Assembly (NCBI GenBank): GCA_035221665.1
Contig: CM069131.1
Location: 27,280,001 to 27,344,000 of the forward strand
DNA length: 64,000 bases
Source of the DNA: Okamejei kenojei
Taxonomy: Eukaryota
Direction of reading: 5' to 3'
Position numbers and translations under genes: made by a program. A model generated the notes under the pieces. It worked only from the letters and a program-made list of their open reading frames with translations, searched no databases and was not told the DNA's origin. This document shows, piece after piece, positions 24,616 through 54,289 of this stretch; positions within the stretch are counted from its first letter, which is position 1, and each line of letters begins with the position of its first letter.

Positions 24616-25357
24616 ATTTTTTTTTTATTTTTTTTAAATTTCAAAATATACTTTATTCGAATGATAAATATATACAATACATTAACCTTGCTGTAAATCC
24701 ATCCGACATTTTCGGAGGCTGTACAATAGATCAATACAGTTTAGACATTTTCTTTTTCCCAAGTTTCCACAAATCAGTCCCCCACTCATGCCACAATGGC
24801 GTGGGATACCTTCCCTTATATTGAGGGGCGTCTCCACAATACTGTCTGTACCCCCCCCATGTCCAGCAGCGGAAGGGCGTTAGACTGTGGCCCTCCCCCA
24901 CCGAGCCTTGGCGTTGGCTGCACCGAGCTTCAGTGCGTCCCTCAGCACGTACTCCTGCAGTCTGCAGCGGGCCAGTCGGCAACATTCCCTGACGGACATC
25001 TCGCTCTGCTGGGTGGTGAACAATGCTCGGGCAGACCAAAGGGCGTCTTTTACCGAGTTGATGACCCTCCAGCAGCACTCGATGTCAGTCTCTGAATGTG
25101 TCCCTGGGAACAGTCCGTAAATCACAGAGTCCTCTGTGACGGAGCTGTTCGGGATAAAGCGTACCAGGGACCCTTGCATTTTTCTCCAGACTCTTTTAGC
25201 AAACCCACACTCTGTGAAGAGGTGGGCAACCGTCTCCTCGCCATAGCAGCCGTCCCGAGGGCAGCGTGCGCTGGTAGTGAGGTTCCGACGGTGCAGGAAG
25301 GATCTGACTGGGAGGGCTCCCCTCACCGCCAGCCAAGCCAGGTCTTGGTGCTTGTTG
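24616..25357 (-). mobile_element. Tx1/L1-clade LINE 3' fragment with poly(A) tail
   Basis: ORF 24880-25455 contains the zinc-finger-like C-terminal domain (DLAWLAVRGALPV..RCPRDGC..EETVAHLFTEC.FAKRVW). T-rich tail at 24616-24636. Confidence 0.85.
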
Positions 25358-26729
25358 TGGATGTGGTTAAAAACCAAAGCACAGGTGACTGATTTCCCTT
25401 GTGTATTTCGTTGTCTGTACGCCAATGCATGCCCACGTGCCTCACGCAGAGTCACACCTGAGACTGCAGCAGAGCTGCTGACAGGCTGCTAACTTGCATA
25501 GGAGCAAACTGCAGAAGGCCTTGGAGAACCGCAAGCAACAACAAACCTAGAAGGCTGGTCCTTAGACATCAAAGAGAGTGTCCTTATTGGCTGCTGGAGG
25601 GGAAGCAGATACTCATGCGGAGAGAGTTTGGAAGGTTCACACTGCATGGAATGCACCAGTGCTCTGGACCATCACTAGCCCTCGTTAACTGCGACGGGTA
25701 GATTGCTTGTGGATGGGTTGATCGTTTTGGACATAATGGACACTCATTAACAGCATAAGAAACCCATCCAGCCCTACCTGAGCCACTCCACCTTTCACCC
25801 CATCGCTTTTCAAAAAAATAAAGACACTGCTTTGCACTGCCCTTTGAGAAAGAGAGTTTCAAGGTTTCATGCTCCTTCATGTTATCTTGGAGGAGCTTCG
25901 GCTCTGAATGTTTCACAAGACGCTTCAGCTGGATACATTGGCTGTGAATGACAACCATCAACCCACAGGCAAATTAGTGTCACAGATTTGTGCATTCGGG
26001 ATTCCCGTTATTTGTCTTCAAGGAACAGGCTTGTCCAAAAATAATGTTTTTTCAATCTATTGATTTAAATGTGAGTTTCAGTTTTGGGATCACTGCAAAT
26101 GGTTGCAAACTGGACTTGAATCTGTTGTAGCTATTGTATTTTGATGCATAGGTGGTTTATACATAAAATGTATTAACTTGACGGCATTACGAAGTGATAG
26201 ACTTGACAGCACCGTGATTGTATAGCCCGGACGATGGTATGAGTGTAAAGCCAGCCGTGTACTGTTTTGCTATGATACCAAGTCAAACTCCTCTCCTCTG
26301 CCTGCATGTGATTGATATCCCTACATTCCCTGCATATCCATATACCTATCCGGAAGCCTTTTTAAATGCCATTCTCGTATCTGCCTCCACCCCCACCCTG
26401 TTAGTGCATTCTTGGCACTCACCACCCTCTGCGTAAAAAGAATTGCGCTACAAATCTCCTTTAAATTTTGCCCCTCTCATCTTAAAGCTATGTCTGCCAC
26501 TCTTTGACATTTTCACCCTGGGGAAAAAGGTTCTGACTATCTATGCCTCTCATACGTTTATAAACTTAATTCACAAAAATTACAAGAAATACAAGCAGTG
26601 CATGGCTTTCTTCACAATCACTACGTCTTCCAGTCTGAACATTCATAATGTTAGCAAGTCTATACAGGCCCCGTGCCATCAGGTTAATACATTCTCTGTA
26701 CAAAGCATCAATGCATTCTTGCGGCCTCT

Positions 26730-27341: not shown

Positions 27342-28410
27342 ATTAGTTTAGTTTATTATTGTCACATGTACCGAGGTAAATTAAAAGTTTTTGGTTGCAT
27401 GCTTTCTACTCAAAGAAGAGACTGTACATGAATACAACCAAGCAGTCCACAGTGCACAGATATAGGATAAAGGGCACAATATTCAGTGCAAGGATATTAC
27501 AGTGAAGTCCAATAAAGTCCAATTAAAGATTGTTCAAAGGTCTCCGATGAAGTGTATGGGAGGTCAGGACCACACTCTAGCTGATGAGAGGACAGTTCAA
27601 TTGCCTGATAACTGCTGAGAAGACACTGTTCATGAATCTAGAGATATGCGTTTTTAAACTTCAGTATCTCCTGCTTAATGGGAGAGGGGAGAAGAGGGAA
27701 TGACCAGGTGAGACTGGTCCTTGAAATGCTGGCGACCTTGCTGAGACAGTGTGAAGTGCAAATAGAGCCAATGGACAGGAGGCTGGTTTGTGTGATGAGT
27801 TCACAACTTGCAGTTTTGGATGTTGTTCCCAAACAAGGCTGTGATGCAGTTTTCTATGCTGAACTCCCTAAGCCTTGGAAGTAGAGACATTGGTATGCTT
27901 TCTAGGCCATTGCTTTGATATGACTGGTCCAGCACAAATTCTTGGTGATATTTATTCCAAGGAACTTTAAGCTTTACACTTACTTCAAGTCATCTAAGTA
28001 GACTGGGGTGCATGTTTTGCTTCATTTCCTGGTCAATCATTATCTCCTTTGCCTTGCTAACATCGACTGAGAGGTTGTTTTCTTGGTTATGTTTTCAATT
28101 TCCTTTCTGTACTTTGTCTCGTCATTATTCAATATCCGGGTCACTACAGCGGTGTTGTCTGCAAACATGTAGATTGAGTTGGATTGGTATTTGGCTGCAG
28201 AGTCGTCAGTGAATAAGGAGTACAGTAGGGGGCTGAGAACACATCCTTGCGGGGCACCAGTGTTGAGAATTATCTTGGAGGATGATTTGTCACCTATCCT
28301 CGTTGATTGCGATCTGTGGGTCTGGAAGTTATGGATCTAATTGCAGAGGGGAGTGCTGGCGCCTAGTTACACAAAATTAGAGATAAGTCAGGTTGGGTTA
28401 ATGGTATTAT
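27342..28410 (-). mobile_element. Rex1/Babar-like LINE fragment
   Basis: The minus strand has ILNTGAPQGCVLSPLLYSLFTDD..FADNTAVV-type RT motifs and a (CTAAA)n tail with AATAAA near 27345. Confidence 0.75.
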
Positions 28411-33130: not shown

Positions 33131-36100
33131 CTTGGCTGCATAAGCTGCACCAGTGATCATGGTTGAGCTTGTGACCGGAGGGAAATCCACAGGCTGGGGT
33201 TGTGGGGTGGAGCGCAGCCTCCATTACATTCAATAGAAGAGAATCAGGTTTCATCAGATCCAACAGGAGGTGATCGGAGAGATCCGTAGGTTCCAGGAGG
33301 TCTGTCACTACATGGAGCACGTGGATTGCCAGCCCCCAGCAATGGCCCACACTCACAGTGCAGGCCTGAGCCTCACATCTCAGCACCAAGCAGCTTCACC
33401 GTGGTCATGGCCTGCTCTGCACCAGGCCTCAGGCCGGCGTCTCCACATGAATTTGTTGCTGGGGGAGCACCAGTGGAAGGCAGGGCTTTGGCCCAAGATC
33501 ACAGCACCCAGGATCCTGGCACCGCACGTACAGTTGCAAGGAGCAGAGCATCTTGTACCCACATTCCCCGCACGGTAATACACAGCACATTCAAGGTGGG
33601 AATTCAGGCCAGATTCCCAGCGCAGCAGCCCTCGTCTTTTTAAAGTAAAGGGACAAATGCACCAGTGAGTCCCTGGACTCCAGGACTAAGAGGCTACAAA
33701 GAATCAAAACTCTGTGGGTAGCAACAGGCAGGGCACCTCTGTGCTTCTTCTGTGAGCGAATACGTTGCTGCCTGCCATCATTTTAATTGCATACTTCATG
33801 GCAGAAACCAAGGAACCTCAACAATCCATGAAATGGTGTCTTTTGACATGATTATTCATTGACATTATTTTAAATAAACAAAAGAAGCTTCCACCAGTAA
33901 ACTTTCCATCATTATTCAGTTGGTGATGACCAGCTATTAATGATGAACAGTTAAGAGGAATAGTCTGTAATCTGGAGAATAGTATGAGAGAGCTAGGCCA
34001 TCACTAGAATTGACAAACAACCTGAGAAGTAAAAGTCTCCGCACAGAATTCTATAGTAAAGGATTGGGTCTGCACAGATAACCATTAGGTTCTATTAGAT
34101 TCTGCTAGTTCTAAGGAAGAGCACCGTTTCTGTTAGTCTCTTTTGTTCACAGAATTATTGAATGGCCTAAATAGGGTATAGATTGAGATGGATGTTTCAA
34201 GAGAGCTCTCCATTATGATGTGGAAGCAGTCTGCGTGCTCTGTAACCCCTCATTGAGATGTCACAGTACGTGCGGACTTAGTTACTGTCAGCCCATACTG
34301 TGTAGCCAGGCAGTGGTAAGCTAGGCAGATGAAAATGTTGTTGCAAAATTGAAAGATTTTGAGACAACTCAGAAAGGTAAAGTCACAAGAGCTGACACTG
34401 TTACTGAAAATGAAAAGAAGAAAAATCCTATACACATATATTGTAAGTCAGTGGGAGACAGGAATGTAGTGAAAGCAGAAGCAGAAATATGGAAAACCAT
34501 ATCAAATATAGTTGGTTATGACAGACATCCAGTAATTTACTGAATATAATATATGTCGACTCTCCTGTATAAATTTTGAAGGCAGCCAATGGGACCAAGT
34601 CACTAAAAGCAAAGAACGCAGGCAGCACACGGCATCTGCACCTTCCGCAACAACCTTCTATGCCCTCACTGTGTCTGAGTGTGAGCCTCCAGGGCTGGTT
34701 TGCCAGTCACACTCCAGCTCACCTACAAAGACTGTAAAACTGGCATCATCAAACTCAATGGTCAACCGGCATACGGCATTTGATAGATGATAGTTGATAG
34801 TTGGTAGTTGGTAGTTGAGAGGAGTTATGTGGCCCAATTAAGTTTTACATGAGGTTATCCCAAGAAGACAGTGATCAAGAATATGTAACTCAGTGTATTG
34901 GCAACTATGAAGATAATTATGTTGAACGAACAACAGTGGAACTGGCTGGGACACCAGATTTGTAGGAAGCAGACCTGATGATCTACTGGAATGATTAGCC
35001 TCTGCAGGGAGATTTCAGATTCAAGTTGCAGCTTGCAGTGGAGTGTTCAGTGAACAAAGAAAGAAAAGGAACACATGAATTAATCTTTATTTGAATTTCT
35101 AACTACACATCAATCTACATAGTTTTAATGACTGTATCATTTCATGAATACAAATCGTTTAATAATTAGTATTTTTTTTAAAGGGGAAATTATGTAGTGT
35201 ATATGTTTACCTTAGTAACTGTATCATGTGGTAGGATTTTGATCCATTGCTGTACCTAGAGAATACTAGCTGGTTGGGAATTGCTGTGTTCAATAAATGA
35301 TGTGGTGTTAATAGCTCCAACTCTGTTATTGACCTTTGTTGTAGCAGGACTATAACTACAATGAAAAGTAAAGGGCCTGATTATGTACTAAATAATTTAG
35401 AGCAGCAGATTCCAGCTTCAACCCTTAACATGTGTCAGCTGAGCTGACGTCAGCAGCCATGGCAACGGCAGCCGTAAATGAAGGAAAGGTGAAAATAGTT
35501 GGAATTTGCTCTCTTCAGTCTGATACCGAGCAGGACATTCTCTTGGCCACCTGGATGTAATGTCTCCCTCTTGACAGCTGTGGAAATAAACTCCAAGTCA
35601 GCACTTTTGGGACGAAAATTAGAGGGATGAACAAGATATGGAGGTATTTGTACATTAGTATTTGCTGAATTAATACAATTTGCTTGTTTTCTCAGTTTAT
35701 TTCCAAGTCTGGAATATAGTGAAGCTCCCGCTTAACTTTTGCTGCTTGCTTTTGTGCTTCCTGCCCTCACTCCGACATATAGCACACTCAGTGTTGTCGA
35801 TCTCAGTGTCTCGTATCTGACTTGTTTGGGATTAGATTCCCAATGGACTCCATCACATTGTACAGTTGCCTTGCTGCCAATATTGCTATTTTATGAATGT
35901 CAATCGTTGGAGAAACTTCTCATTAAAGATGCAGCCTCACCCCACTATTCCACCAATCCCCCACCCCCACGACGAGAGGAAGTCCACCAGATTGACCGAT
36001 GTGCAGCCGAGCGTGGCCAATGAGATAAGGACTGGAAAGCTGCACTTTTTATTTATTGCCAGTGCTAGTGTCGAGTAACACGTTCATGGATAGGAAAAGA

Positions 36101-38530
36101 TTAAAGGGATATGGGTCAAACAAGGGGAAATGGGACTAGTTTAGGTGGGGCATCGTTGGCATGGATGAGTTAGGCTGAAGGGCCTGTTTCTGTGCTATTT
36201 CACTCTCTGGCTGCAGCAGTCCATCTTGGTTTTGTACGAAATTCAGGTATCTGCTGTCTCACGTGACTCCTCCTTCTGAATGTTAGTCTTAGGTTCATAC
36301 ACAGAGTTCTAGGATTCAGCAAGGAGTTAAATCCTGTTTGCAAGACCAATCTCCCTCATATCCCATTTGTTGTCCATCAATGACTTGATTCCTCATTGAG
36401 TTTCTGGTGGAATCAAGTCCTGGTGTCCTGTGCTGTATAACTCTGACTCTGAGAGGATGCATCTTCTTCATATTCACCCTGCTAAGACTGCTTAGGATCT
36501 TTGATGTTTCATTTGGTGAATGTCCAGAAAATATACATTATGTATGTTTTGTAATCTTAATTCAAAATCTACGATAATAAAAAACATTCAGGGTCAATAG
36601 AAATCAAAGTCAGAATCCAAAGAACAGTGGATTTTATAGGCCTGGGAGAGTCAGCAGGCTGTACAAAGCAGTTTTGAATAGCTGTAAATATTGCCTCCTA
36701 CTTAGTTAGCTCAGGTGGTGATTGATTAATCTACAGTTTTGACAAAAAAAATCAGTAGCTTGCATAAAACAAGGAGTTGGTTGCTTCATTCATTCTGAGA
36801 TATTTGTCGTCATTTTAGGATATTGATACAGTGTAGCTCATATGCTGTCATGGTCTTATTTTCCTTCTGACATCTCCTTCCTCAGTATTTGCTTCTACTA
36901 TTAGAAACATCAAAATATGTCCATTGTTCACTATCATCTATTTACCTCCGACTGAATGGCTGCTATTTGAATATGCCTACCACGTCATTTGCATTGGAAA
37001 AGATAGCAGAAGGCAAACCTTTATTTAAATCTCTCATTCTTGATTTGCCAGAAGGAGGACCAACTTGATTTTGTCACGTCATGAAATGTGTACCAATTAC
37101 TCCCTTTTGAAATAAGCAGTATTCTATGCATATTAAAATAACTCTTTCACATTAGTAAGATCGCAGCAGAAACCTAAAAGCAATGGCAGGACTTGGGCCT
37201 ATAAACACCTGAAAGAAATGTACAATATTATACTCTCAGTCACCCAGCATCCATGGGGTGTCAAATGCATAAATATGTTGGTCAAATGAGAATTCAAAGA
37301 ACCTAATAATAACTGTGGTCAAGACGGGCATGTGTTTAGTGACCAGTTGGGCTACACCTCAAAAGGATGCTAAATTTATGGTGACAATGTTGAGATGAAA
37401 TAGTAAGATAATAAAACTTAGGATGCCACCATATAACTTAAATTATAGCAAGAGGACAAACCATTGAGTTCCAGTTACTTTTTGAAAAGGCAGTGGTGTT
37501 AAATTTACAATTTAGTTTCTTTCTGTATTAAATTTGAACATTCGGATCTCTGTCTATCCATCTAAATAAGGTTCCCGACCCAAAATGTTACCTACCTCCA
37601 GAGATGCTGCCTGACCCGCTGAGTTACTCCAGCTTTTTGTGTTTATCTTCGGTTTAAACCGTCTTTGTTTGTAAACCCGCATCTGCAGTTCCTTCAGAGA
37701 TATTGTCAGAGTCCTCATGTTTGGCGTCTAGGCAGTGAAGGCCAGTTTGTCACACACTCTGTATCAGAGGTTGGATGATAATCTTGGGATCGATCCTCAG
37801 TGAGTAAGAGTGCTGCAAGTTTAAAGGGGTAGGTTTGAAAAAAGGGTATCGGTAAAATGATTAATGTTGCATCAAAAATATTTGATCATTAGATTCAGAG
37901 AGGGTAGGTATTCAGACGGATCCTTGTGGATTGGAAATTGGGAGGTCGGGAGAAGAATAAACAATTTTATGGTCTTGCTTCTGACGATTAATGCAAGAGA
38001 TTTAACATATTGTCAGACGTTTTACGTGTCCCAAAGGCAAGGCAGAAGACCAACCATATTTGGACGACTTAAGACAATTAAAGACTGGAAAATGTAGGTA
38101 TCTATTGTAAAGGAAGAAGGGAGGAAAGAAAGAGATGAGAGGGAGGAACGGGCATTGCTATGAACCCATTGTACCTTGAAGACAACTCAAAGTACATTAT
38201 TATTTTATTACTTTAGAACATAATAACTTGAGAAACAGATGCAGGGTAAGCCAATTGGCCCCTCAAGACCATGGTTTATTCAGTATTGTGACTGGATAGT
38301 AGTGCATTCAAAGGTTTGGATGAAAGTCCCGGTTTGATCATAGAGTATGTGGAATTAAGGGCAATATGCTTTCATTAATTGAGTCTACTTTTAATGTTTC
38401 TCATCAATTTACTCTCATATTATATCTTGTCTTTCTTTCTAAATTTGTTGGTCCTTCGGTGCTGAGTGCTAAAATTGCACCAAATTGTCAGATTAATTGT
38501 ATTTGGAGAATGTAACAGGAAAGTGGAGCA

Positions 38531-39338
38531 CAAGTTCAAGTTCACATTTATTGTCACATGCACCAATTAAGGTACAGAGAAATTTGAGTTACCATGCAAC
38601 CCTACAATCAAAAAGAAGACAATACAGAATAGAATTTAACATAAACATCCACCACAGTGGAATCAACATTCTTCACTGTGATGGAAGGCAATATCGTTCA
38701 GTCAATCTTCCTCTTTTGTTCACCCGTGGTCGGTGCCATCAACCCTCCGTAGTCGCCGATACAGATGGCCCGATGCACAAGCCCTCTCATCGGGATGATC
38801 GAAACCCCGACATCGGGACGGATCGGAACACACACTCCGCGGCTTGGAGTTCCCGTATCAGCCACTTTCTTACCAGAGACCGTGGCTCTGTGATGTTATA
38901 GGCCGCAGGCTGGCGGTCGAAGCACTTCTTCAGGCGATCCCCAGCAAGGGATTCCAGGCTCCGCGATGGAAAGTCCACATCGTGCCTGCGGCTAGAAGCT
39001 CCGCAGACCGTGGCTTCATGATGTTATAGTCCGCAGATCGGCGACGGAGCACTTCTTCTGACGATCCCCGGCAAGGGATCGCCTCGCTCCGCGATGTTAA
39101 AGTCCCACCACGCCTGCTGCTGAAGCTCTGGGCCGGTCTCTGAGAAAGGCCACACCAATCCAGTTGTTAGGCCGCGAGGGGGGTGAAGATGCGACAAAGT
39201 GAAAAGTCGCATCTCCGTCGAGGTAAGTGACTGAAAACGGTTTCCCCCTATTCCCTCCCATCACCCCCCACACTAAACATACATTTAGACATACTAAAAA
39301 AGGTTGAAAGGACGAACACGCTGCTGGCGAGGCAGCCA
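38531..39338 (-). mobile_element. Non-autonomous GC-rich retroposon (partial second copy at 48143-48812)
   Basis: (TGAACT)n tail with AATAAA on the minus strand. 3' region shared with 8256-8790. Internal ~130-bp imperfect repeats (ccgtggct..tgatgttatag..gcacttctt). Confidence 0.6.
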
Positions 39339-39724
39339 CCCAGTGACCTGTTCAAACATGAGAGATTGGGTGGTGTTGATGTTCAAAGGGACCTGGGTGT
39401 CCTTGTACAATGTTGTTCTACAACAACATGCAGGGGTAGCAAGTGATTAAGAGGGATATAAGCATGTTAGTCTTTGTTTGGAGAGAACTGAGGATAGGAA
39501 TAAGGAATTGAATAGAGTTTGGTGAGATTTCAACCAAGATTATTTAGTCAGTTTTGGTCCTTTTTCCTAAGAAATAATGTATGCCATGGAAGGGAACAGC
39601 CAAGATTAATGAGACTAGTTCCAGTACTGGGGTAGGAAAGAACTGCAGATGCTGGTTTAAATCGTAGGTAGACACAAAATGCTCGAGTAACTCAGTGAGA
39701 CAGGCAGCATCTCTGCAGAGAAGG

Positions 39725-41382
39725 CAGGGCCGGATTTAGATGAAGAGAGGCCCTGGGCTATTCCACTTGTCAGGCTCCTCCCAATCCCCCACCCCCACGA
39801 CGAGAGAAAGATGGAAGAGTCCACCAGATTGACACCGGTGTGCAGCCGAGCGTGGCCAATGAGATAAGGGCTGGAAAGCTGCGCTTTTTATTTATTGCCA
39901 GTGCTGGTGTCGAGTTATCGGCTTAAAACACTGTTATTATAAAATGGAGGGCAAGGAAAATTACTGAAGTGTTGTTTAGAGACTACAGTGCATTGTGACA
40001 GCATATGTAAGAAAGGCGTATGACAGTGTCAAAAATATTATACACCAGGCCTGTACGAAGCTTTTCAAAAAGGGGGGTGGTATGGTAGGATTACAAAAAC
40101 TTTATGTGAAATAAGTGCAAGCAGCGCATATCACAAGCGTGAAGCTCAAAGACCCTTGCGGCCGGCGTCTTTTGATACTCTCTGGTGCATTCTGATCCTT
40201 ATTTTGGAGCATTTTTGCACCAAATTTATGACCAGTATTCAGAAATAATTTCGGTTGAGTCAAGAGTAATGAGTGGTTGGAATGGGATGATTGGAGTCAT
40301 TGTTGTATACATTTTCTTTATTGAAGAATTGAAGCTATCCTTGTTTTAATAATCAAGTTGTATTGTAAAATGTTATGTAAAATGTTATAAAGGAGCATGC
40401 AAACACTGCAAATAAAATACTGTACGTTTTAGCAGCAAATAAAATCTTTTTTTAGAAAGTTTTGTGTGTTGATTTGATTGCCTGTTACTGTTCGACTGTG
40501 TTAGTGTGCTGATTAAAAATATGATGCAAAATGAAAGTCGCAAACTATGGAATACATAATTTTCAGTATTGTTATCAAGGAAAATAAAGTAGTTCCAATT
40601 GTTTGATATTATTCATATGGAGGAGAAAATATAATTGCTCTAAAACCTACCTTAATTTTGCAATCTCACTAAAGATAATCCCCCTTTCCCTCTCCCCCTC
40701 CTCCTTCCCCCTCCCTCCCCATCTCTCTCTCCCCTCCCCCACTCCCCCTCTCTCTCTCTCTCTCCCCCTCCCTCTCTCTCCCACCTGTGTCAAGCCCCCC
40801 TTTTCCCCCTCTCACAACCTCCCTCTCTCTCCCTCCCTCCCCCTCGCTCCCTCCCACGCAGCGAGGCTCCGACTCCGCGCCGCAGACACTGCAGCCCCCC
40901 CCCCCCCCGGCCCGGAGAAACGGGCACTCCCGCAACACAATATTCCACTACTTCCCTGGAGTAGACACCTAGGATCGTTGGTAGACACGAGGCATCGAGG
41001 TGATTGTGTGGAGTGCAAATGGAGATCTGAACCTGCCCGGGCCCACTGCGCACGCGCGGAGAGACAGCGTCATTTTGCGTCGCTACTGCGTCACCGGCTT
41101 CCCCCAACTGCGCAGGCGCGGATGGTCACAATTTCTTTCCCCAAATCTTCCAGCGGGCCGGAACCAGAATTTTGGGTTATTTCCGTCAAAGCACTCCAAT
41201 TTTTTTTTCTTAGGATTTTTTTTACTCTTGGAAATAAACACCTTGGCCGGAGGCCCCCTAGATTTTGAGGCCCTAGGCTTCAGCCTATGAAGCCTATGGG
41301 TAAATCCGGCCCTGCCGAGGCCCCCCTAGATCTCGAGGCCCTAAGCTTAAGCTTGTGAAGCTTATACGTAAATCCGGCCCTG
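39725..41382 (+). mobile_element. Non-autonomous hAT-type DNA transposon
   Basis: TIRs CAGGGCCGGATTTA and TAAATCCGGCCCTG. The right terminus is present twice (ending 41314 and 41382). No transposase ORF. Confidence 0.8.
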
Positions 41383-42585
41383 CCTCGCCCGCTGAGTTTC
41401 TCCAGCATTTTTGCCTACCTTCAATTTTCCAGCTCTGCAGTTCCTTCTTAAACATTCTCATGAAAGTACATTTGAAATGAGAGATGAATAATCAAAGTCT
41501 GACTGATTCAGCACTGGTCTGTGTCTGATCTTCCAGCACAGTTGGACACCAAGACAAAAAGTTTCACCTTGTTAACTAGATGTTGTTATGGATTAGCCAG
41601 TCCCCAGTGAGAGGAATCTTGAGCAAAAATGAACCAGCTGGGCTGAATGGCCTGTTTTTGTGTGTAGATTACTATATACATTTACCATCTTGCTTTCATT
41701 TCCATTTTGTGGTTAATTCTGCAACAAGCAACCATTTCTGGTGACAGTATGTGAGTCACTAGCTCAACAATTAATTGCTTCAACATGGACACAATTGGGC
41801 ATTTGTCCAAACGTTTAACTGTGATAAAAATGTATAAAATGATAAACTAGCAGAGAAATTATACAATGGATGACTGTAAATATGGTAATTTTGCCAGCAT
41901 CCCTTGCCCTCCCAAAATACATTTATGTATGGGGAAAAAGCAGGAACGGTGTCTTGATTTTGGATGATCAGCCATGATCATATTGAATGGCGGTGCTGGC
42001 TCGAAGGGCCGAATGGCCTACTCTTGCACCTATTTTCTATGTTTCTCAAATATGGGTATTGACTGCATCTTGCAGGCAAAGACTTTTAATATAATACTAT
42101 GTTTACTAAATAAAACAAAGTACAATTCCATATTCATTGTTTATGAACCAAACCATTCAATGACAGCAATAGTATATATTAATTGCATCAGGTGCTGTAT
42201 ATTTTAGAGTAGCAGCAGCAAGAATAACATATTTCAATAATCATAATATTAATAAATGAGTATATAAGTCTTTGTTATATGGTTTAGTTTACTGTCACGT
42301 GTACAGTGAAAAGTGTTTTTATTATGTACTATCCAGTCTGCGGAAATACTACATGCTTTAAAACTTCCCTCAGTTTTAACACCATTAAACTGGAAGTCAT
42401 TCAGTTTTCTGCTCCACAATTGAAGCTAATGGGTGAATGCATGTTAAACTAATGAAGAACAACAAATATGCACTTGCAGGACTTCACAGCAACACAGAAT
42501 ATTTTACAATTTCAGTTGACCAGCCATTAATATAATATGGTCAATACTAAAACAAAAATGTGACAATTACAAAGAATAGATATAA

Positions 42586-42885
42586 GGCACAGTGGCACAC
42601 TGGTATAGGTGGTGCCTTACAGCGCCAGAGACCTAGGTGCAAAACCTAGAGAGCGGGTGCTGTCTGTACGGAGTTTGTACGTTCTCCCAGTGACCCTGTG
42701 AGTTTTTCTCTGGAAGCTCCAGTTTCTTCCAATATTCCAAAGACGTGCAGGTTTGTAGGTTAATTGGCTTCTGTAAATTGTCCCTAGTTTGCAGTACGAA
42801 GCTAGTGTAAGGGTGATTGTTGATTGGCATAGACTTGCTGAGCCGGAGGGCCTGTTTTAATGATGTATCTCTAAACTAAACTAAA
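42586..42885 (+). mobile_element. HE1-type V-SINE, near full length
   Basis: tRNA-like head ggcacagtggc..ggta, V-domain tgtacggagtttgtacgttctccc, CR1-like 3' end gggcctgttt and (CTAAA)n tail. Confidence 0.85.
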
Positions 42886-43070
42886 CCAACTGCAGATACC
42901 TGTTACAAAAAAACACAAAATGCAGGAATACCTCAGCGGGTCACGCAGCATCTCTGGAGAACATGGATATGTGACGTTTCAGGTCAGGACGCTTTGTCAG
43001 TCTTCATTCCATGTTGTCCAAATAGTCTGCCTGATCTGCTGACTTATTCCAGCAATTTGTGTCTTTTTTT
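42886..43070. mobile_element. Penelope-derived palindromic element (diverged)
   Basis: Arms cacaaaatgcaggaatacctcagcgggtcacgcagc..ggagaacatgga and tccatgttgtcc..ctgcctgatctgctgacttattccagcaatttgtg. Confidence 0.7.
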
Positions 43071-43713
43071 TTAATGCAATGCTTATGTTTGGCCATCTGA
43101 TGTCACCATCACATAAGTAACTTGGAAAATATTCAGTCGTAATGCAGCTCATGGCAGCATGATAAAAGTTTTCTCAGAGTTGGCATTCAGTTACTGAAAC
43201 CATCAAATGGTCAAAAGAATCTATACTGAATAATTTGTAATGACTGTTCCACGGCCTGTTTCATTATTCAAAAATTAAAAACAGAAGTGCTGCCAGCATT
43301 TTCTGTCTTTAGTTTAGATTTCCCAGTGTTGGAAAAACCAATTAGTCAATTGCTGCAGAGATATTTGACGGGATTAAAAATGGGTGCTGGTGAATCTTCT
43401 ATCTACTTTACGTCTACTTTGCTATGAAATTAAGACCTTTCAGTCAGAGAGATCCTGCAGTCAGGAAGGGCAAACTGGCCATTATCTAGCAGACGTTAGC
43501 AGGGGGACCGCAGAGCCCGGGATTACAATCAGGGAGCAAGGTGGCAACAAGATGAGATTTCATCCCACAGCTTGGACCTTTATATAATCTTTACCGATTT
43601 GTTAGCTTTGCAGAGCATACTCCTGGCAGGGCCTGCGTCACCATTCACTACTGATAAGAAGAAATGAAGACGGTTCATCAGCAACACCAGCTCTGTAGAA
43701 CCCAAGGTCAGCT

Positions 43714-43817
43714 AATAGGGACTGTTAAAAATTATTTCTGTAGAGTAATAATAGGGACTGTTAAATTACTGTAGAGTAATAATAGGGACTGTTAAAAATT
43801 ATTACTGTAGAGTAATA
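43714..43817. repeat. AT-rich tandem repeat, 3 units of about 31-36 bp
   Basis: taatagggactgttaaa(aatt)attactgtagagtaa occurs three times. Confidence 0.85.
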
Positions 43818-45222
43818 AATTATATTTATTATTCTACTGAGATAGGGATTTAGACCTGAGAGGGAGAGGAGGGCACAATTGTGGTTTCTTCTTTCATTCT
43901 ATGATGTAGCTATCTTACCACTGTTATGCAACTAGTTACAATAACTATGGTAACGAGGCCCCGGACAATCCGTCTGGTAGTTCCATACAGTTGGCATCCA
44001 ATGACCATTTTGTATGAGAGTGAGGAGAAGATTAAGGGTAAAGTGTGAATACAGCATTGTGTTTTCCGGCTGAAAAATCACTAGATTTCACCAGTGAGGA
44101 AAATCCAGTTCTTATTAGCCTGCATACATACATAGACCTGGATTAGGAGCAGGGGTGAGCCACACAGCCCCCTAGGCCTGCTCTACTATTTAAAAGATCG
44201 TGGCTAATCTAATTGTTACCTTCACTTCATTTATCCACAGTAACCTTTCATCATCTAGCTTTTTAAGTATCCATCTATCCATAAAATTGCTCATAGTTTC
44301 TGCTTCCATTGCCCTTTGAAAAAGAAACATCCAAACACCTTTGAGAGAAAATGTTTCAGCTTATCTGTCTTAAATTGTGACATACCATTCTCTCCACATC
44401 TACCCTAACAGAGTCACTTGGTGATTTTAAATATTCATTCAAATCCCTTCGTACTCTTCCAAATACCAGCAGATGCAAGCCTGACCTGTCAATGTTCTTT
44501 GTTTAGTTTAGTTTAGTGTATTATTGTCACATATACCGAGGTACAGTGAAAAGCTTTTGTTTGCGTGCTATCCAGTCAGCGGTGAGATGATACATACTGT
44601 AAATACAGTCGAGCTGTTCACAGAGCACAAAGGATAAAGGGCACATTTAGTGCAAAGATGTAACACTGACATCCGATAAAGTGTGATTAAAGATAGTTCA
44701 AACGTGTCCAATGAGGTAGATGGGATGTCGGGACAGTGCTCTAGCTGATGAGCAGACCATTCAATTGCCTGACACCAACTGGGGAAAAATACCCGCACCG
44801 GTTATTAGTCAAATAAATGTTTTCTGTACTGCTTTCAATATATTAAGGTTCTTCCTTAGATAAGAAGACCAGTACTGTACACAATGGTCCTGATGTGCTC
44901 TTACCAATGCCCTAAATAATGATACATAACATTCCTACTTTGATATTCAATTTTCCTGGCAGTGAATAATAACATTCTGTTAGCTTTTCTAATTTCTTGC
45001 CATACCTACATACCAGCCTTTTCCAAATCCTACACTAAGACACCCAGACCCCTCTGTATGTTTTCTTTCACTCTCTTATCAAAATTAACAGTTTCACATT
45101 TCCCGACCTGATACTCCAGATCTTTGCTCACTCAATTAATCAATCTATATCCCCTATCCTCTCTTTTTGTCCTCTTTGCAACTTATTTTCCTTCTTTACA
45201 TAATCAACAAATGTATTACCCA

Positions 45223-45318
45223 AGGTAGACAAAAATGTTGGAGAAACTCAGCGGGTGAGGCAGCATCTATGGAGCGAAGGAAATAGGCAACGTTTCGGGC
45301 CGAAACCCTTCTTCAGAC
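45223..45318 (-). mobile_element. Single-arm Penelope-derived element with a complete minimal hammerhead core
   Basis: The minus strand reads CTGAAGA-A-GGGT-TTCG-GCCC-GAAA-CGTT. 8-bp TSD ATTACCCA at 45215-45222 and 45319-45326. Confidence 0.75.
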
Positions 45319-45477
45319 ATTACCCACTGGCTCATTTATGTAAATTGTAAATGGGTTGCGGCCCCAAACATTGAGCCTCGTGACATCGTTTGTTACATTT
45401 TGTCCTGAGAAAGACCATTTACTTTCTATTTCCTGTTAGCCAAACAATCTTCTGTCGATGCCAATATGCTGCCTTCT

Positions 45478-45697
45478 AGACAATAGACAATAGGTGCAGG
45501 AGTAGGCCATTCGGCCCCTCGAACCAGCACCGCCAATCAATGTGATCATGGCTGATCATCCACAATCAGCACCCCGTTCCTGCCTTCTCCCCATATCCCT
45601 TGACTCCACTATCTTTAAGAGCTCCGTCTAGCTCTCTCTTGAAAGCATCCAGAGAATCGGCCTCCACCGCCCTCTGAGGCAGAGAATTCCACAGACT
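45478..45697 (-). mobile_element. CR1/HER1-type LINE 3' end
   Basis: (TAGACAA)n tail followed by ggtgcaggagtaggccattcggccc..tgatcatggctgatc, as in the other CR1 copies. Confidence 0.85.
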
Positions 45698-46538
45698 AAA
45701 TTAATTTTTATTTTCTGCAATAAGCATTGCTGAGGCACCTTATCAAAAGCCATCTGGAAATCTAAGGCAAGTACCATACATCAACCAGATCCCCTTTATC
45801 CACTGATTCCTCAAAGAACTCTAGCAAATTAGTCAATCATCATTTCTGTTTCAAAATCATGTTGGTGTTGCCTGATTTTTCTCTTTCAATGATTTATTAA
45901 CTCATAAGAAGTTATTTCAATAACTTATAACATTTCTACTGTTCTTTTGGTGATTTTTCTCTATGTTCTCATCTTGAATGTACAATGTTGACCTTGAACA
46001 ACAGAATTTATTAACTTATAAATCTACCTACCTGATATGCAAATTGCTTATGACTTGATTTAAACAAACCCTTCATTGTCTAATGGCCACAACGGCTTGT
46101 TGTCACTGCCGATGTACAAATAACTGCTGTGCTCACATTTTATGCCACAAAGACCTTTTATAGTCCCATAGAAGATGGTGCGGGGAAGGCCAGTTCTTGC
46201 AACTTATTTAATCGTAGCAATTTACACTTATGACATGCTTGTAAACGTGTAGATCATGAAATAAAAATGCATCGTCCAAAAGTGGAGGATGTTTCCAATT
46301 GAATAGGTTGCGAGCAAATGCTGCAACTCTAGTGGAGAGTTGATCAGGAAATGATCTTATAGGGATGCATAAAATCATGAGTGAAATAGATAGGGTAAAT
46401 GCACAGATTCCCTTTCCCAGGGAAAATGTTATAGGAACCTGACGGGCAACTATGACACACTGAATGCGGTACGATGTGGAGCGAGCTGCCAGAGGAAGTA
46501 GTTGCGGTGGGAACAGAAACAACATTTAAAAGACATTT

Positions 46539-49500
46539 TAACACGTTCATGGATAGGAAAGGATTAAAGGGATATGGGTCAAACAAGGGGAAATGGGACT
46601 AGTTTAGGTGGGGCATCGTTGGCATGGATGAGTTAGGCCGAAGGGCCTGTCTCTGTGCTATTTGACTCTCTGGCTGCAGCAGTCCATCTTGTTTTTGTAC
46701 GAAATTCAGGTATCTGCTGTCTCACGTGACTCCTCCTTCTGAATGTTAGTCTTAGGTTCATACACAGAGTTCTAGGATTCGGCAAGGAGTTAAATCCTGT
46801 TTGCAAGACCAATCTCCCTCATATCCCATTTGTTGTCCATCAATGACTTGATTCCTCATTGAGTTTCTGGTGGAATCAAGTCCTGGTGTCCTGTGCTGTA
46901 TAACTCTGACTCTGAGAGGATGCATCTTCTTCATATTCACCCTGCTAAGACTGCTTAGGATCTTTGATGTTTCATTTGGTGAATGTCCAGAAAATATACA
47001 TTAGGTATGTTTTGTAATTCAAAATCTACGATAATAAAAACATTCAGGGTCAATAGAAATCAGAGTCAGAATCCAAAGAACAGTGGATTTTATAGGCCTG
47101 GGAGAGTCAACAGGCTGTACAAAACAGCTTTGAATAGCTGTAAATATTGCCTCCTACTTAGTTAGCTCAGGTGGTGATTGATTAATCTACAGTTTTGACA
47201 AAAAAATCAGTAGCTTGCATAAAACAAGGAGTTGGTTGCTTCATTCATTCTGAGATATTTGTCGTCATTTTAGGATATTGATACAGTGAAGCTCATCTGC
47301 TGTCATGGTCTTATTTTCCTTCTGACATCTCCTTCCTCAGTATTTGCTTCTACTATTAGAAACATCAAAATATGTCCATTGTTCACTATCATCTATTTAC
47401 CTCTGACTGAATGGCTGCTATTTGAATATGCCTACCACATCATTTGCATTGGAAAAGATAGCAGAAGGCAAACCTTTATTTAAATATCTCATTCTTGATT
47501 TGCCAGAAGGAGGACCAACTTGATTTTGTCACGTCATGAAATGTGTACCAATTACTCCCTTTTGAAATAAGCAGTCTTCTATGCATATTAAAATAACTCT
47601 TTCACATTAGTAAGATCGCAGCAGAAACTTGAAAGCAACGGCAGGACTTGGGCCTATAAACACCTGAAAGAAAAGTACAATATTATACTCTCAGTCAGCC
47701 AGCATCCATGGGGTGTCAAATGCAAACCCGCATCTGCAGTTCCTTCAGAGATATTGTCAGAGTTCTCATGTTCGGCGTCTAGGCAGTGAAGGCCAGTTTG
47801 TCACACACTCTGTATCAGAGGTTGGATGATAATCTTGGGATCGATCCTCAGTGAGTAAGAGTGCTGCAAGTTTAAAGGGGTAGGTTTGAAAAAAGGGTAT
47901 CGGTAAGATGATCAATATTGCATCAAAAATATTTGATCATTAGACTCAGAAAGGGTAGGTATTCAGACGGATACTTGTGGATTGGAAATTGGGAGGTCGG
48001 GAGAAGAATGAACAATTTTATGGTCTTGCTTCTGACGATTAATGCAAGAGATTTAACATGTTGTCGGACATTTTACGTGTCCCAAAAGCAAGGAAGAAGA
48101 CCAACCATATTTGGACGACTTAAGATAATTAAAGACTGGAAAATTCTTCACTGTGATGGAAGGCAATATCGTTCAGTCAATCTTCCTCTTTTGTTCACCC
48201 GTGGTCGGTGCCATCAACCCTCCGTAGTCGCCGATACAGATGGCCCGATGCACAAGCCCTCTCATCGAGATGATCGAAACCCCGACATCGGGACGGATCG
48301 GAACACACACTCCGCGGCTTGGAGTTCCCGTATCAGCCACTTTCTTACCAGAGACCGTGGCTCTGTGATGTTATAGGCCGCAGGCTGGCGGTCGAAGCAC
48401 TTCTTCAGGCGATCCCCAGCAAGGGATTCCAGGCTCCGCGATGGAAAGTCCACATCGTGCCTGCGGCTAGAAGCTCCGCAGACCGTGGCTTCATGATGTT
48501 ATAGTCCGCAGCCGGCGACGGAGCACTTCTTCTGATGATCCCCGGCAAGGGATCGCCTCGCTCCGCGATGTTAAAGTCCCGCCACGCCTGCTGCTGAAGC
48601 TCTGGGCCGGTCTCTGAGAAAGGCCACACCAATCCAGTTGTTAGGCCGCGAGGGGGGGTGAAGATGCGACAAAGTGAAAAGTTGCATCTCCGTCGAGGTA
48701 AGTGACTGAAAACGGTTTCTCCCTATTCCCCCCCATCGCCCCCCACACTAAACATACATTTAGACATACTAAAAAAGGTTGAAAGGACGAACACGCTGCT
48801 GGCGAGGCTGCCACCCAGTGACCTGTTCAAACATGAGAGATTGGGTGGTGTTGATGTTCAAAGGGACCTGGGTGTCCTTGTACAAAGTTGTTCTACAACA
48901 ACATGCAGGGGTAGCAAGTGATTAAGAGGGAGATAAGCATGTTAGTCTTTGTTTGGAGAGAACGGAGGATAGGAATAAGGAATTGAATAGGGTTTGGTGA
49001 GATTTCAACCAAGATTATTTAGTCAGTTTTGGTCTTTTTTCCTAAGAAATAATGTACGCCATGGAAGGGAACAGCCAAGATTAATGAGACTAGTTCCAGT
49101 ATTGGGGTAGGAAAGAACTGCAGATGCTGGTTTAAATCGTAGGTAGACACAAAATGCTCGAGTAACTCAGTGAGACAGGCAGCATCTCTGCAGAGAAGGC
49201 AGGGCTGGATTTAGGTGAAAGTCCCTGGGCTATTCCACTTGTGAGGGTCCTCCCAATCCCCCACCCCCACGACGAGAGAAAGATGGAAGAGTCCACCAGA
49301 TTGACACCGATGTGCAGCCGAGCGTGGCCAATGAGATAAGGGCTGGAAAGCTGCGCATTTTATTTATTGCCAGTGCTGGTGTCGAGTTATCAGCTTAAAA
49401 CGCTGTTATTCTAAAATGGAGGGCAAGGAAAATTACTGAAGTGTTGTTTAAAGACTACAGTGCATTGTGACAGCATATGTAAGAAAGGCGTATGACAGTG

Positions 49501-50233
49501 TCAAAAATATTATACACCAGGCCTGTACGAAGTTTTTCCAAAAGGGGGGGTGGCATGGCAGGATTACAAAAATTTTATGTGAAATAAGTGCACACAGCGC
49601 ATATCATAAGTGCGAAGCTCAAAGACATAACATTTCCCCCTCACACATCCCCCCATCTCTCTCCCTCCCTCCCTCCCTCTCTCTCGCTCCCACGCAGCGA
49701 GGCTCCGACTCCGCGCCACAGACACTGCAGCCCGCCCCCCCTCGGCCCGGAGAAACGGGCACTCCCGCAACGCAATATTCCATTACTTCCCTGGAGTAGA
49801 CACCTAGGATCGTTGGTAGACACGAGGCATCGAGGTGATTGTGTGGATTGCAAATGGAGATCCGAACCTGCCCGGGCCCACTGCGCACGCGCGGAGAGAC
49901 AGCGTCATTTTGCGTCGCTACTGCGTCACCGGCTTCCCCCAACTGCGCAGGCGCGGATGGTCACAATGTTTTTCCCAAAACTTCCAGCGGGCCGGAGCCA
50001 GAATTTCGGGTGATTTCCGTCAAAGTGGAAATTCTGATAGCACTCCAATTTTTTTTTTTCTCTGTTTTTTTTTACTCTTGGAAAAAAATACCTTGGCGCG
50101 GAGGCCCCCTAGATTTTGAGGCCCTAGGCTTCAGCCTATGAAGCCTATAGGTAAATCCGGCCCTGCCGAGGCCCCCCTAGATCTCGAGGCCCTAAGCTTA
50201 AGCTTGTGAAGCTTATACGTAAATCCGGCCCTG
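46539..50233 (+). repeat. Segmental duplication copy 2 (native flanks, three internal deletions)
   Basis: Colinear with 36076-41382 but lacks about 37269-37672, 38094-38669 and 40153-40810. The left flank continues a CR1 fragment and the right flank carries the TSD. Confidence 0.9.
49200..50233 (+). mobile_element. Non-autonomous hAT-type DNA transposon with 8-bp TSD
   Basis: TIRs CAGGGCTGGATTTA and TAAATCCGGCCCTG. TSD AGAGAAGG at 49192-49199 and 50234-50241. Inserted in a Penelope-derived palindrome (about 49110-50340). Confidence 0.88.
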
Positions 50234-51359
50234 AGAGAAGGAATGGGTGATGTTTTGGGTCGAGTCTGAAGCCCCGAAACGTCACCCATTCCTTCTCTCC
50301 AGAGATGCTGCCTGTCCTGCTGAGTTACTCCCGCATTTTGGGGTGTTTGCTTTATGAGAGATTGTGGGGAGTGCACCCTCAGGTTTAGAAGAGGGTAGGT
50401 GTCCTTGTAACATACAAAATTCATAAAGGGACTGCCAGACTAGATGTAGAAAGACATTTCCTCCAGCCTCATAGCCCCACAACAACACATGACAGAAGAG
50501 TCAATGAGCAGTGGGCACAGTGTCAGAAAAAGTACTATGCTCATTAGGACTGACATGAGGGGAAATTCCTTCATTCAGTGGGTCATGGGTCTTTGGAATT
50601 CTTTATCCTGGGTCTGTGGAAGCTCAGTTATTGATTAGCCTCCTAATCTGAGATCAAAATAATTATAAACCAAGGATAAGGGAGTAATGGTGGAAATTAT
50701 TCTCAGGTATAAGATTAATGGTGATTTTTGTGAATGGTGGGGCAGAGCCAAAGGCCTGGATGGCCAACCCCTGCGTCAGTTTCATGTCTTGATGTAATGA
50801 ATATGTAGAAGCTGCTCATTTTTTGTTAGTAAGGCCTCAAAAACGAGAAATAAATGAGAAGTTTGTTTTAGTGGAGTTTGTTGAGCACTAAGTATTGGGC
50901 ATGTCATTTAGCTAGGTCCCTTGCTTTTTCAAACAGTGTCTTAAGATCATTTCTGCACAAATGAAATGGAAAGAACATCTGACTGAAAGCTTCTGAATGT
51001 TTATTTTTAAAGAGCTGTCAAATTGCAAGGATTCTTCTGATATGCTTTAAGAAATATAAAGCAATTAGCCTACTTATCCCCATGACCTTGACATTTGGAA
51101 CTATTCAGTGAATTGATTTTAATTCATTATGATTCTGACCTGACCAGATGGAAATGATCGGTACCATTTAAAACTGAGCAGGGAATTACCCCGTTGTGTC
51201 TCTATACCAAGTTGGCTAACTGTTACTTTAAATTGTAAGCAGGCTGGAGGTCTGTTCCAAGTAAGTGTTGCCCCCTTTATGTAACCAGATTAGTCTCTAA
51301 ATAAAATCATCAAGATGTGATCTCCAATTTTCATCTGGGAACTGCTATGGTTTCTCTAC

Positions 51360-51700: not shown

Positions 51701-54016
51701 AATATGACACTATTGACTATATATAGACACTGGAACAGTGTGAAGAGTTTTTTTTGCATAGTTTTTGTTTCGTATATTGTTTTTAATCTGAATAACATTT
51801 ATTTTTGAAATAAAAATAATTGGGTTCAAAACTCTGGCCTTCCCTGGCCTTAGTTTATCTGACTCTATTATGAGATTCACCCCAACAACCCCCACATCAT
51901 CCTGCCAGTGCTTGCACAAGGGGACATATCCCAAATCTGTGGCAAAGGTATCTTCCTGTTTGGTGTTAGCATCCAAGCATCCACCAATGCTCTTTAATTA
52001 AGATTTGTGATCACCAATTGTTGAAATTGACCAAGTCTCCCCACAATTACACAACTTTATTCTTCAGCAATTGCCCCATCCCAACCGACACTACCAGCAA
52101 TTGGAATCAAGCTCAAACTTTCGTTCAGTTTTATTGTGCAATTCTGTAAACGTTTAACTTTAGATTGGAACTGTTCCAGCATTGGCAGATGGATAATAGA
52201 TTGCAGGTAAATTTGTCACTAATCTTGTGGTACCAGGTTACACTCATTGCTTTCTTTGCTGTGTGTCCAGTGTGATTTGTGCATTGATCATGATACAGGC
52301 TATCTTTTCTTAATCTCAGTTGTGATCATTGCATTAGCCTTGTGTTATGGTGTAAGGGGTTGACTGCAACAACCTTCTCAAGTACATAAATGAATATTGT
52401 TAGCAAAGAGGTTTACACAATAAAATAGATTGTCAAATCAACCTTTCCATGTGATTGATAGTTCTCTGTTTAGTACTGTTTCTCCATTGTTATTCACTGT
52501 GGATTCATGATACAGTACTGGGTTTCAATCATCAATAATGAGAGAAAATATATTTATTTGAAAGGTTATGTATTTTCTTGCTGGAGTAAATTATCTAATA
52601 CTATTTCCTGTATAGGGTCATTGATGGGGTGAGAATAAATAATATGATATGTAATCACACAAGAATACCTTTAAGTAAATATCTGCCAGAGGAAGCTGTA
52701 TGAGCTGATACAATTTCAACTTTCAAAAGATATTTGGACAGTATATGGATAGGGAAGTTTCGAAGAATATGTGCCAAATTTGGGTATGTGGGACTAGTCC
52801 AGAATGTCAACTTCGTTAGCACGGACAGGTTGGGCAGAAGGATCTTTTCCATGCAGTATGGCTCTGTACAATATTGTCCATCTTTAAATTCCTCTGAGGA
52901 GGTTGTGCTGAACCATTTTCTTGAGATGCTGCAGTCCTGGTGAAGGCAGTCCCAGTGAAGGCAGTCCCAGTTACTTGGTATGGAGAATATCTGGATTGAC
53001 CAACAAAAATGATGGTGATATACTTGCAAGGCAGGATATTGTGTCACTTGAAGGGGAATCTTCAGGGTGTTGTATTTTAATGTGTTTGGTGCCTTTGTAA
53101 TTCTTGCTGTTATAGGTGAGTTTGTGAAGAAGTGTAGATGTTAACACATTGAGTAACAGCACTAAGTAACTGACCAGGTTGCACACCAGCCATGATCTGC
53201 CAGCGCTGGAGGCAATTAGTGTCGAGGGTGGAGGATGGCATGCCAATCAAGTAGACCTTTTTTTTTTAAATAGCGGAGAGTTTCAAGTACTGTTGGAAGT
53301 ACATTAATCTGGGTAATTGGACAACATTGCACCGGTTTTATAGTTGATGGGAAGCTGCGGAGCAGCAAACGGTGACTCGTTTGTCACAGGATATCCAGTC
53401 CCCGACCAGCTATTGCAGATACACTATTTTTGTGATGGGTCCAAACTGATCACGGGAAGGTAGATTTGGTAATATAATCTGAAATGTTAAGTGTAGGGAG
53501 TTACATTCTCCCTTGTTGCTAATTATCTGGCACATATGATGTGATGACTATGTCACGTCCTTGCTTGAAGCTTTGTGAACACTGCACATTGCAAAACGTA
53601 GTGCGGAGCTGCGACGAAAATGCCATATTCTTCCTGGAAGATGCGACATCTCTCTCCGATGTTGTTGTCGAAGTCGAATGGGTCTCGTCTCCGGAATGCA
53701 TCAGCCATGCTCGTTTGGCAAACAGACTTTTCGTTCTCTCTTGTGAAAAGAGAGAGGAAAAACTCGAGCCGATGAAGTTCTGGAATAAAACTTCTGACAC
53801 CATGTATGAAGTTGTTGGAATAACGACAAGTATTGAACTTCATATGAAGTTGTTTATTAACCACGAGGCCTGCAGACTCAGCCAAAGCTACATTCCACCC
53901 CAGTGTGAGAGCCAGCCTGTGCAGGATAACATTGCACAGAAGCCGTCGATACAAGCGCCCATCATGGATCAGGCCTACACGAGGCGCCACATCACGCAGC
54001 AGATGCCGACTGGAGA

Positions 54017-54282
54017 CCCGGAAGTGACGGCAGGTGCCCCGCAGGCGGGCCGCGTAGAACCCGGAAGTGACGGCTGATGCCCCGCAGGCGGACCGTGCAA
54101 AACCAGGAAGTGACGGCTGATGCCCCGCAGGCGGGCCGCGCAAAACCAGGAAGTGACGGCTGATGCCCCGCAGGCGGGCCGTGCAAAACCAGGAAGTGAC
54201 GGCTGATGCCCCGCAGGCGGGCCGTGTCGAAGCCGGAAGTGACAACAGGGTGCCCCGCAGGCGGAGAACCCGGACGTGACGC
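54017..54282 (+). repeat. 43-bp VNTR, 6 units plus a degenerate seventh, in the promoter
   Basis: GGAAGTGAC starts at 54020, 54063, 54106, 54149, 54192 and 54235. The variant GGACGTGAC is at 54272. Confidence 0.95.
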
Positions 54283-54289
54283 CGCTTCT

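Follow-up and report, generated by a model that had tools for sequence, protein, structure and literature searches.

A composite hAT-type structure that contains the copied flank of a sister element in the skate Okamejei kenojei

We analyzed a 64,000-nt stretch of contig CM069131.1 from the Okamejei kenojei assembly GCA_035221665.1 (positions 27,280,001 to 27,344,000 of the forward strand). This whole stretch is called the window, and its positions are counted from its first letter. At 35935-41390 the window holds a composite of three pieces inside an 8-bp target-site duplication: the stub of a hAT element, DNA captured from the flank of a second element of the same family, and a whole element. 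A preliminary description, made from the sequence alone, had named these pieces, and we found every one of them where it had been placed. The self-comparison of the window for which that description had called revealed a single large duplication, 36076-41382 against 46539-50233, in four blocks. The composite structure is real, and the direction of copying is from the locus at 46.5-50.2 kb. The features of the two loci are as follows.

35927-35934, + strand: left stub of a short palindromic repeat arm, the insertion target; matches the arm motif at 15 of 16 positions together with the adjoining 8-mer, and is part of the reconstructed empty site.
35935-35942, + strand: target-site duplication, left copy, 8 bp; 7 of 8 bases identical to 41383-41390.
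35943-36076, + strand: damaged hAT left end corresponding to element positions 1-191, with the terminal repeat down to 2 nt; its last base is the junction microhomology.
36076-36207, + strand: 3' remnant of a long interspersed nuclear element (LINE) reverse transcriptase, severed by the capture junction; its frame is whole in the donor.
36076-39724, + strand: captured copy of the DNA left of the donor element, 3,649 bp; 98.0% identical to 46539-49199 over 2,660 aligned columns.
37269-37672, + strand: segment of 404 bp retained in the composite and deleted in the donor, with 1-nt microhomology; a repeat arm, complete here, is reduced to its tail in the donor.
38092-38667, + strand: segment of 576 bp retained in the composite and deleted in the donor, with 2-nt microhomology.
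39717-39724, + strand: the donor element's own left target-site duplication, copied; identical to 49192-49199 and 50234-50241.
39725-41382, + strand: complete non-autonomous hAT element, 1,658 bp, with perfect 14-bp terminal inverted repeats and no transposase domain found.
41250-41382, + strand: tandemly doubled right end from the repeat search, two units of ~68 bp that each close in the terminal repeat; common to the donor element.
41383-41390, + strand: target-site duplication, right copy, 8 bp; 7 of 8 bases identical to 35935-35942.
41391-41454, + strand: resumed part of the interrupted repeat arm, from the empty-site reconstruction and self-comparison.
46344-46660, + strand: donor LINE fragment (tblastn), unbroken over 46539 and without an insertion footprint.
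46539-49199, + strand: donor flank, at present 2,661 bp, from self-comparison.
49200-50233, + strand: donor (sister) element, 1,034 bp, internally deleted, with one mismatch in its left terminal repeat, from alignment and repeat search.
50234-50241, + strand: donor target-site duplication, right copy, 8 bp, a perfect match to 49192-49199; the interrupted palindromic repeat resumes beyond it.

The outer boundaries of the composite carry the marks of an insertion. An 8-bp target duplication had been claimed here, and the enclosing 8-mers agree at all bases except one, a match with a chance of about 5e-4 between two arbitrary 8-mers. The left flank (35927-35942) differs by one mismatch from a 16-nt arm motif that occurs nine times in the window at no more than two mismatches, where 0.05 matches are expected. 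The arm picks up again at 41391, and excising everything between the 8-mers rebuilds one arm; the proposal that the outer flanks rejoin in this way was therefore correct. The palindromic short repeat that hosts the insertion lies at 16 places and makes up ~2.5% of the window. What we observed is the repeat family itself, and we assume that Penelope is the proper name for its flanking arms. Both insertions (35935-35942 and 49192-49199) hit this family, a coincidence with a chance of ~6e-4 if they are independent. The two target sites occupy neighboring positions in the arm consensus, which suggests a target preference. Just left of the target site, at 35905-35934, a few bases resemble by eye the opposite palindrome arm, as after a deletion collapse.

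The elements at the two sites share the signature of hAT transposons, with 14-bp terminal inverted repeats and 8-bp target duplications at both. Duplications of 8 bp are a hAT signature (PMC12511174). At no more than two mismatches, the terminal repeat has six matches in the window against 0.25 expected, and they are laid out as one left end and two right ends in each of 39725-41382 and 49200-50233. The units of the doubled right end (41250-41382 and 50098-50233) are 85% alike; each closes in a perfect terminal repeat, and either could serve as the right end. By eye, 9 of 11 bases agree between this terminal repeat and the 11-bp repeat of Tip100-type hATs, and the 8-bp target duplication is common to both (PMC12511174); the subgroup is judged here from the ends. 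No transposase domain was found in 70 of the 111 open reading frames that overlap the composite or in 259 of the 271 frames of at least 62 amino acids elsewhere in the window.

All three element pieces have the same orientation. Terminal-repeat, self-comparison and profile searches found no fourth piece within the 64-kb window. A candidate fourth copy at 8808-9136, reported by nhmmer, consisted only of low-complexity C/T sequence and was gone after masking. Stray family copies in bacterial and archaeal assemblies numbered zero. Miniature inverted-repeat transposable elements (MITEs) are short, uniform in length and high in copy number. The preliminary description had used this label, for which the elements here, at 1,658 and 1,034 bp, are presumably long.

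We identified the right-hand locus as the donor and the left-hand structure as derived because the C-terminal reverse-transcriptase frame is continuous across 46539 and severed at 36076, and because the donor's target duplication lies inside the composite. In tblastn comparisons with named ray and skate proteins, 46471-46590 aligned as one piece. The LINE fragment, which we take to be of CR1 type, is thus intact at 46539 and cut in the composite, as had been proposed. The copying of ~3.6 kb from 46539 onward, from beside a sister element ~10 kb away, is likewise borne out. Self-comparison shows one parent of the captured DNA within the window, and 41383-46538 is single copy except for dispersed repeats. 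The insert ends at 39914, 6.6 kb from the donor start at 46539.

The two copies have not lost the same DNA. The composite reads as a snapshot of an older donor state, because the 404- and 576-bp donor deletions each cut a repeat that is whole in the composite. The segment at 38092-38667 includes the end of a dispersed repeat that also occurs near 8.3 kb and is absent from the donor. The donor element is also missing ~520-640 bp, and the composite's element is missing 15 bp. All three large deletions that followed the copying fall on the donor side (46539-50233), although CpG decay is symmetric; CpG losses of 13 versus 9 gave no significant polarity of substitution between the copies (p = 0.52). 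The donor deletions, the donor's target duplication inside the composite, the divergence values and the mismatch between element length and the MITE label were absent from the preliminary description.

These differences also bear on a false duplication created by assembly or by unmerged haplotypes, the probability of which we consider close to negligible. Such an artefact is unlikely in view of the divergence between the copies (2.0% for the flank, 4.0% for the element) and of the three large segments lost from the donor. The copies carry 90 substitutions in 3,584 aligned columns, their longest identical run is 243 nt, and they are set apart by three large and several small insertions or deletions, with such changes present on both sides. 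CpG decay has affected both copies (13 and 9). The boundaries coincide with element ends, a target duplication and an empty site that reassembles, and the window contains no N.

Compared with element positions 1-191, the left stub at 35943-36076 has lost 31, 15, 9 and 2 nt in four deletions. Its outer left terminal repeat keeps 2 nt, after which element positions 3-33 are gone, in line with the CA and internally deleted left end described earlier. The composite is probably immobile because its left terminal repeat has been reduced to these 2 nt. In 134 three-way columns the stub has four private substitutions versus one and one in the other two element copies, and its four deletions compare with 0.11 expected at the flank rate. 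On both counts the stub appears to have a separate history. G-to-A changes on the + strand account for three of its four private substitutions (36031, 36044 and 36067), and the mismatch in the target duplication may be a fourth such change in the region 35935-36076. These few changes possibly reflect deamination of single-stranded DNA at a break.

The capture junction (36076/46539) has 1 nt of microhomology. The preliminary description had noted this overlap, but it is at chance level. There is no poly(A) tail at either end of the insert. We examined hairpins as a cause of the break or of the first (31-nt) stub deletion and rejected them: the predicted folding energies were no better than those of shuffled sequences (z from -0.99 to +0.60). 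The 31-nt deletion almost coincides with a 7-bp stem and the break falls in a predicted loop; we did not use this as evidence. End-bypass transduction was ruled out since the left end is a genuine element end and not a cryptic one.

We favor, with moderate confidence, a repair-mediated local duplication anchored on the sister transposon. The model starts from what the sequence shows: two non-autonomous hAT copies of the same family lie in the same orientation at a distance of ~10 kb, and an 8-bp target duplication brackets each of them. At the left site, the sequence reads as an element split at position 190/191 by an insert of 3,839 bp, a copy of the sister's left flank and the sister's first 190 bases. 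In our model, the left (resident) element would have suffered a break, either in its interior or through a transposase cut at the left end. The right broken end would then invade the sister through shared element sequence, and synthesis would pass through the sister's left end and ~3.65 kb further. The released strand would be end-joined to the left stub at the 1 nt of microhomology, and the clustered small deletions in the stub may be repair scars or older decay. The composite would have been assembled in place and would never have moved as a unit, with the three large segments lost from the donor afterwards. We propose a one-ended invasion because one junction is blunt or has 1 nt of overlap, and the other is homologous and carries the donor's own target duplication. 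The common orientation of the three element pieces, with no fourth in the window, speaks for the same reading. Single-copy Pack-TIRs in animals, named for terminal inverted repeats (TIRs), lie mostly near their parents and have been ascribed to gap filling (PMC8277862), and repair duplications within transposons are common in vertebrates (PMC2671141). The preliminary description had offered gap repair with template switching or alternative transposition. Both fit the structure, but a third route, unequal crossover followed by a 6,624-bp deletion, had been overlooked.

If the resident element came first, parts of the composite should predate the copied flank. We counted divergence between the copies with two tracts of the element, one poly-T and one C/T-rich, excluded. 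The copies differ at 53 of 2660 positions in the flank (2.0%) and at 37 of 924 in the element (4.0%), with Fisher p = 0.0014 for all sites and p = 0.003 for non-CpG sites. The peak of a change-point scan run without labels fell 6 bases into the element, at 39731, with p = 0.037 by permutation and a support interval of 39172-40081. A change point near the element start is as expected if part of the element were resident and not copied. The private substitutions and the deletions of the stub point the same way.

A number of results weigh against repair on the sister element. A circular-shift test of the age contrast gave p = 0.044. The divergence of the flank block at 37673-38091 (15/419) is on a par with that of the element (p = 0.76 versus element). 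CpG decay is equal in flank (13/79) and element (9/53), with p = 0.023 for an element twice as old. The excess of divergence lies in element positions 1-426 (21/423) and not in the right part (16/501, p = 0.10 versus flank). Positions 1-191, which should be flank-like if the switch took place at 191, show 7/188. The age contrast is thus weak on closer look. The template switch site was placed no more finely than the support interval, 39172-40081, and positions 1-191 were indistinguishable from positions 192 to the end (p = 1.0). The copied tract is also longer than all 824 proximal repair-mediated duplications in human transposons (up to 619 bp) and than the distant class of such events (up to 3,424 bp; PMC2671141). 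Finally, the product is indistinguishable from that of unequal crossover plus deletion. The age test leans toward a resident element without settling the matter, and relative ages do not cleanly separate repair, crossover and alternative transposition.

Unequal crossover (non-allelic homologous recombination) between direct-repeat elements is an explanation that we regard as unlikely. It would have duplicated ~10.4 kb, and the later deletion would have removed 5.2 kb from the start of the duplicate along with the larger part of the first element. No transposase or special capture step is required. We infer that these events would yield the exact order observed, including the matching outer 8-mers and the internal donor target duplication. 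The locus has the hallmark given for tandem duplications between transposon copies that arise by this route, three copies in direct orientation that flank and separate the duplicated segments (PMC3744419). The locus is prone to large losses (404, 576 and ~520-640 bp in the donor), and a hybrid internal element would account for the uneven divergence. The first repeat unit here is incomplete, however, which differs from those tandem duplications (PMC3744419) and calls for the extra 6.6-kb deletion. That makes two events instead of one, with a deletion about ten times the size of the others seen, and the four small clustered stub deletions are left unaccounted for.

The hAT signature and the equal CpG decay of flank and element, which fits a single age, are compatible with a solo composite insertion by alternative transposition during replication, of the maize Ac/Ds type. 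We give this origin only a small share of our confidence. Left and right ends, drawn from donor sister chromatids or from the donor and a lost partner, would have entered unreplicated DNA at 35935. Re-replication, fork abortion and end-joining would have followed, and the 8-bp duplication would date from the same event. Solo composites in maize arise via reversed-ends transposition and re-replication (PMC4270019). They share with our locus the hAT class, the 8-bp duplication, two ends that enclose a duplicated flank, and an end-joined internal junction, there with 0-4 nt of microhomology. They also lie ~10-16 kb from their donors, two cases at 13.4 and 16.5 kb (PMC4270019). The composite in O. 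kenojei differs in being 5.4 kb long versus ~10-24 kb, in its degraded left end and in its possibly uneven ages. No second, reversed-end element of the kind that accompanies maize donors turned up anywhere in the window, which extends 13.8 kb beyond the donor on its right.

Three further points argue against this origin. The left terminal repeat, necessarily intact at insertion, now measures 2 nt, and an origin at a single age predicts less divergence than the stub and element body show. There is no accompanying tandem duplication, though the maize solo cases also lack one. A version with a single element on sister chromatids is an extrapolation of ours; PMC3744419 mentions hybrid element insertion. 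We consider it doubtful that transposition-induced re-replication took place here naturally in a vertebrate, with the two ends of one hAT, on sister chromatids, entering unreplicated DNA at a distance of 10 kb and leaving a solo composite insertion. Should that have happened, the four deletions of the stub and the three large deletions of the donor might be scars of the event, a suggestion that we likewise put forward as improbable.

A stub of different ancestry would also be accounted for by compound transposition, which we judge to be very unlikely. A third copy that once sat just left of 46539 on some haplotype, or a template-switch chimera at the donor, would have supplied a left end and the donor element a right end, and both would have gone to 35935 together in a Pack-CACTA-like or FoSTeST-like manner, followed by a fusing deletion. 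Tandem direct insertions with terminal deletions are known for Pack-CACTA elements (PMC6379663). There is no footprint at or just left of 46539. The scenario requires a lost haplotype and an additional deletion, and it predicts that the internal element is a plain copy of the donor.

We compared the composite to captured sequences in other genomes. A survey of animals reported 370 Pack-TIRs, 208 of them hAT, with 57% of the unique ones no more than 15 kb from the parent (PMC8277862). Their captured DNA has a median length of 224 bp, and the largest human case measures 3,585 bp. Like the single-copy members of this group, the O. kenojei composite holds host DNA between ends of the same family and inside an outer target duplication, is apparently single copy, and has a parent in cis within 15 kb and a junction with short or no microhomology. 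It differs in its capture of 3,649 bp and in the loss of the outer left repeat. Its right part restarts at element position 1 with the donor's target duplication, and its parent abuts an element of the same family, a class that the survey excluded (PMC8277862).

The definition used in the survey leads to a mixed outcome. The internal length between pieces of the same element falls within the specified 100-5,000 bp, and the identity to the parent over the 2,660 columns is above the specified minimum of 90% (PMC8277862). At least 10 bp of both termini are specified, and the left piece here keeps 2 nt. The ratio of internal to parental length is 137% because of the donor deletions, outside the specified 80-120%. 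No transposon is allowed within 100 bp of the parent, and the donor flank is bounded by the sister element at 49200 on one side and by the interior of a LINE fragment on the other. By these rules the composite is not a Pack-TIR; it is a sister-anchored variant at the upper size limit. The term Pack-hAT in the preliminary description was therefore overstated; no second copy of the composite is known. The statement that such capture is less documented in vertebrates is outdated, given the 370 animal Pack-TIRs (PMC8277862) and the 824 human repair duplications (PMC2671141). For the elephant shark, the sole cartilaginous fish met in a keyword search of the survey supplements, zero Pack-TIRs are given (PMC8277862). 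In the part of the literature covered, we found no account of this locus or of such a composite in cartilaginous fish.

The composite also resembles the duplications in transposons that arise by synthesis-dependent strand annealing, in which a copy of nearby DNA interrupts a transposon without poly(A) and with an end-joining-type breakpoint (PMC2671141). That study asks for an interruption of at least 50 bp from a single source without poly(A); the insert here has one source in the window and no tail. The distance of 6.6 kb exceeds the study's working cut-off of 5 kb for the donor in confident cases. Microhomology, deletion or filler is sought there at the breakpoints; the composite has 1 nt, at chance level, at one end. 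It further differs in the length of its insert, 3,839 bp, and in having long sister homology rather than microhomology at the other end (PMC2671141). We conclude that the composite is a large, tidy instance of a known process.

We found no sign of host gene capture in the cargo. Pfam searches of the 70 of 111 composite-overlapping open reading frames (at least 30 amino acids) gave no match above threshold and three below it (E from 0.003 to 0.045), and Rfam had zero matches in the window. A rough splice-site scan returned 16 candidates in the window, none of them in the captured or donor flank; short or non-coding exons, or regulatory sequence, could escape these searches. With no exon or protein domain seen in the captured DNA, capture of a host gene was rejected. 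From our reading of the self-comparison, recognizable dispersed repeats make up about a third of the cargo. The composite is very probably neutral.

A single, probably neutral duplication of repeat-rich DNA in which no gene was found carries modest weight. The composite keeps ~1.6 kb that are gone from the donor, which provides an internal snapshot for deletion studies in a skate or ray genome. It also defines a searchable pattern: an element stub, a foreign flank, a foreign target duplication, a whole element and the element's own target duplication. This sister-anchored pattern is excluded by the main animal survey (PMC8277862). If sister-anchored composites are common, a class of transposon-driven duplications has been filtered from Pack-TIR screens by design.

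The rest of the window contains further repeats and two putative host features. A LINE reverse-transcriptase frame lies at 10700-11416, and its best named relatives are in Mobula, Leucoraja, Hypanus and Pristis (63-77% identity). On the - strand, a broken BEL/Pao-type long terminal repeat (LTR) retrotransposon at 18176-19594 has its Pao peptidase domain in one frame and its integrase zinc-binding domain in another. The same strand holds pieces of non-LTR retrotransposon reverse transcriptases (zf-RVT, RVT_1) at 24883-25488 and 28043-28336. A near-perfect short tandem repeat occupies 4449-4673 (135 bp at 99% identity, offset 90). The segment at 7017-7436 (- strand) is a likely host exon with splice sites that would encode a stalk rich in Ser and Thr as well as a hydrophobic stretch resembling a transmembrane segment; searches with this putative exon at 7.0-7.4 kb found no homolog. 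At 54000-54800 there is a CpG island (GC 0.63, observed/expected 0.94). It includes short tandem repeats, and a splice donor may lie near 54460. This island is probably a gene promoter, ~4 kb right of the donor element.

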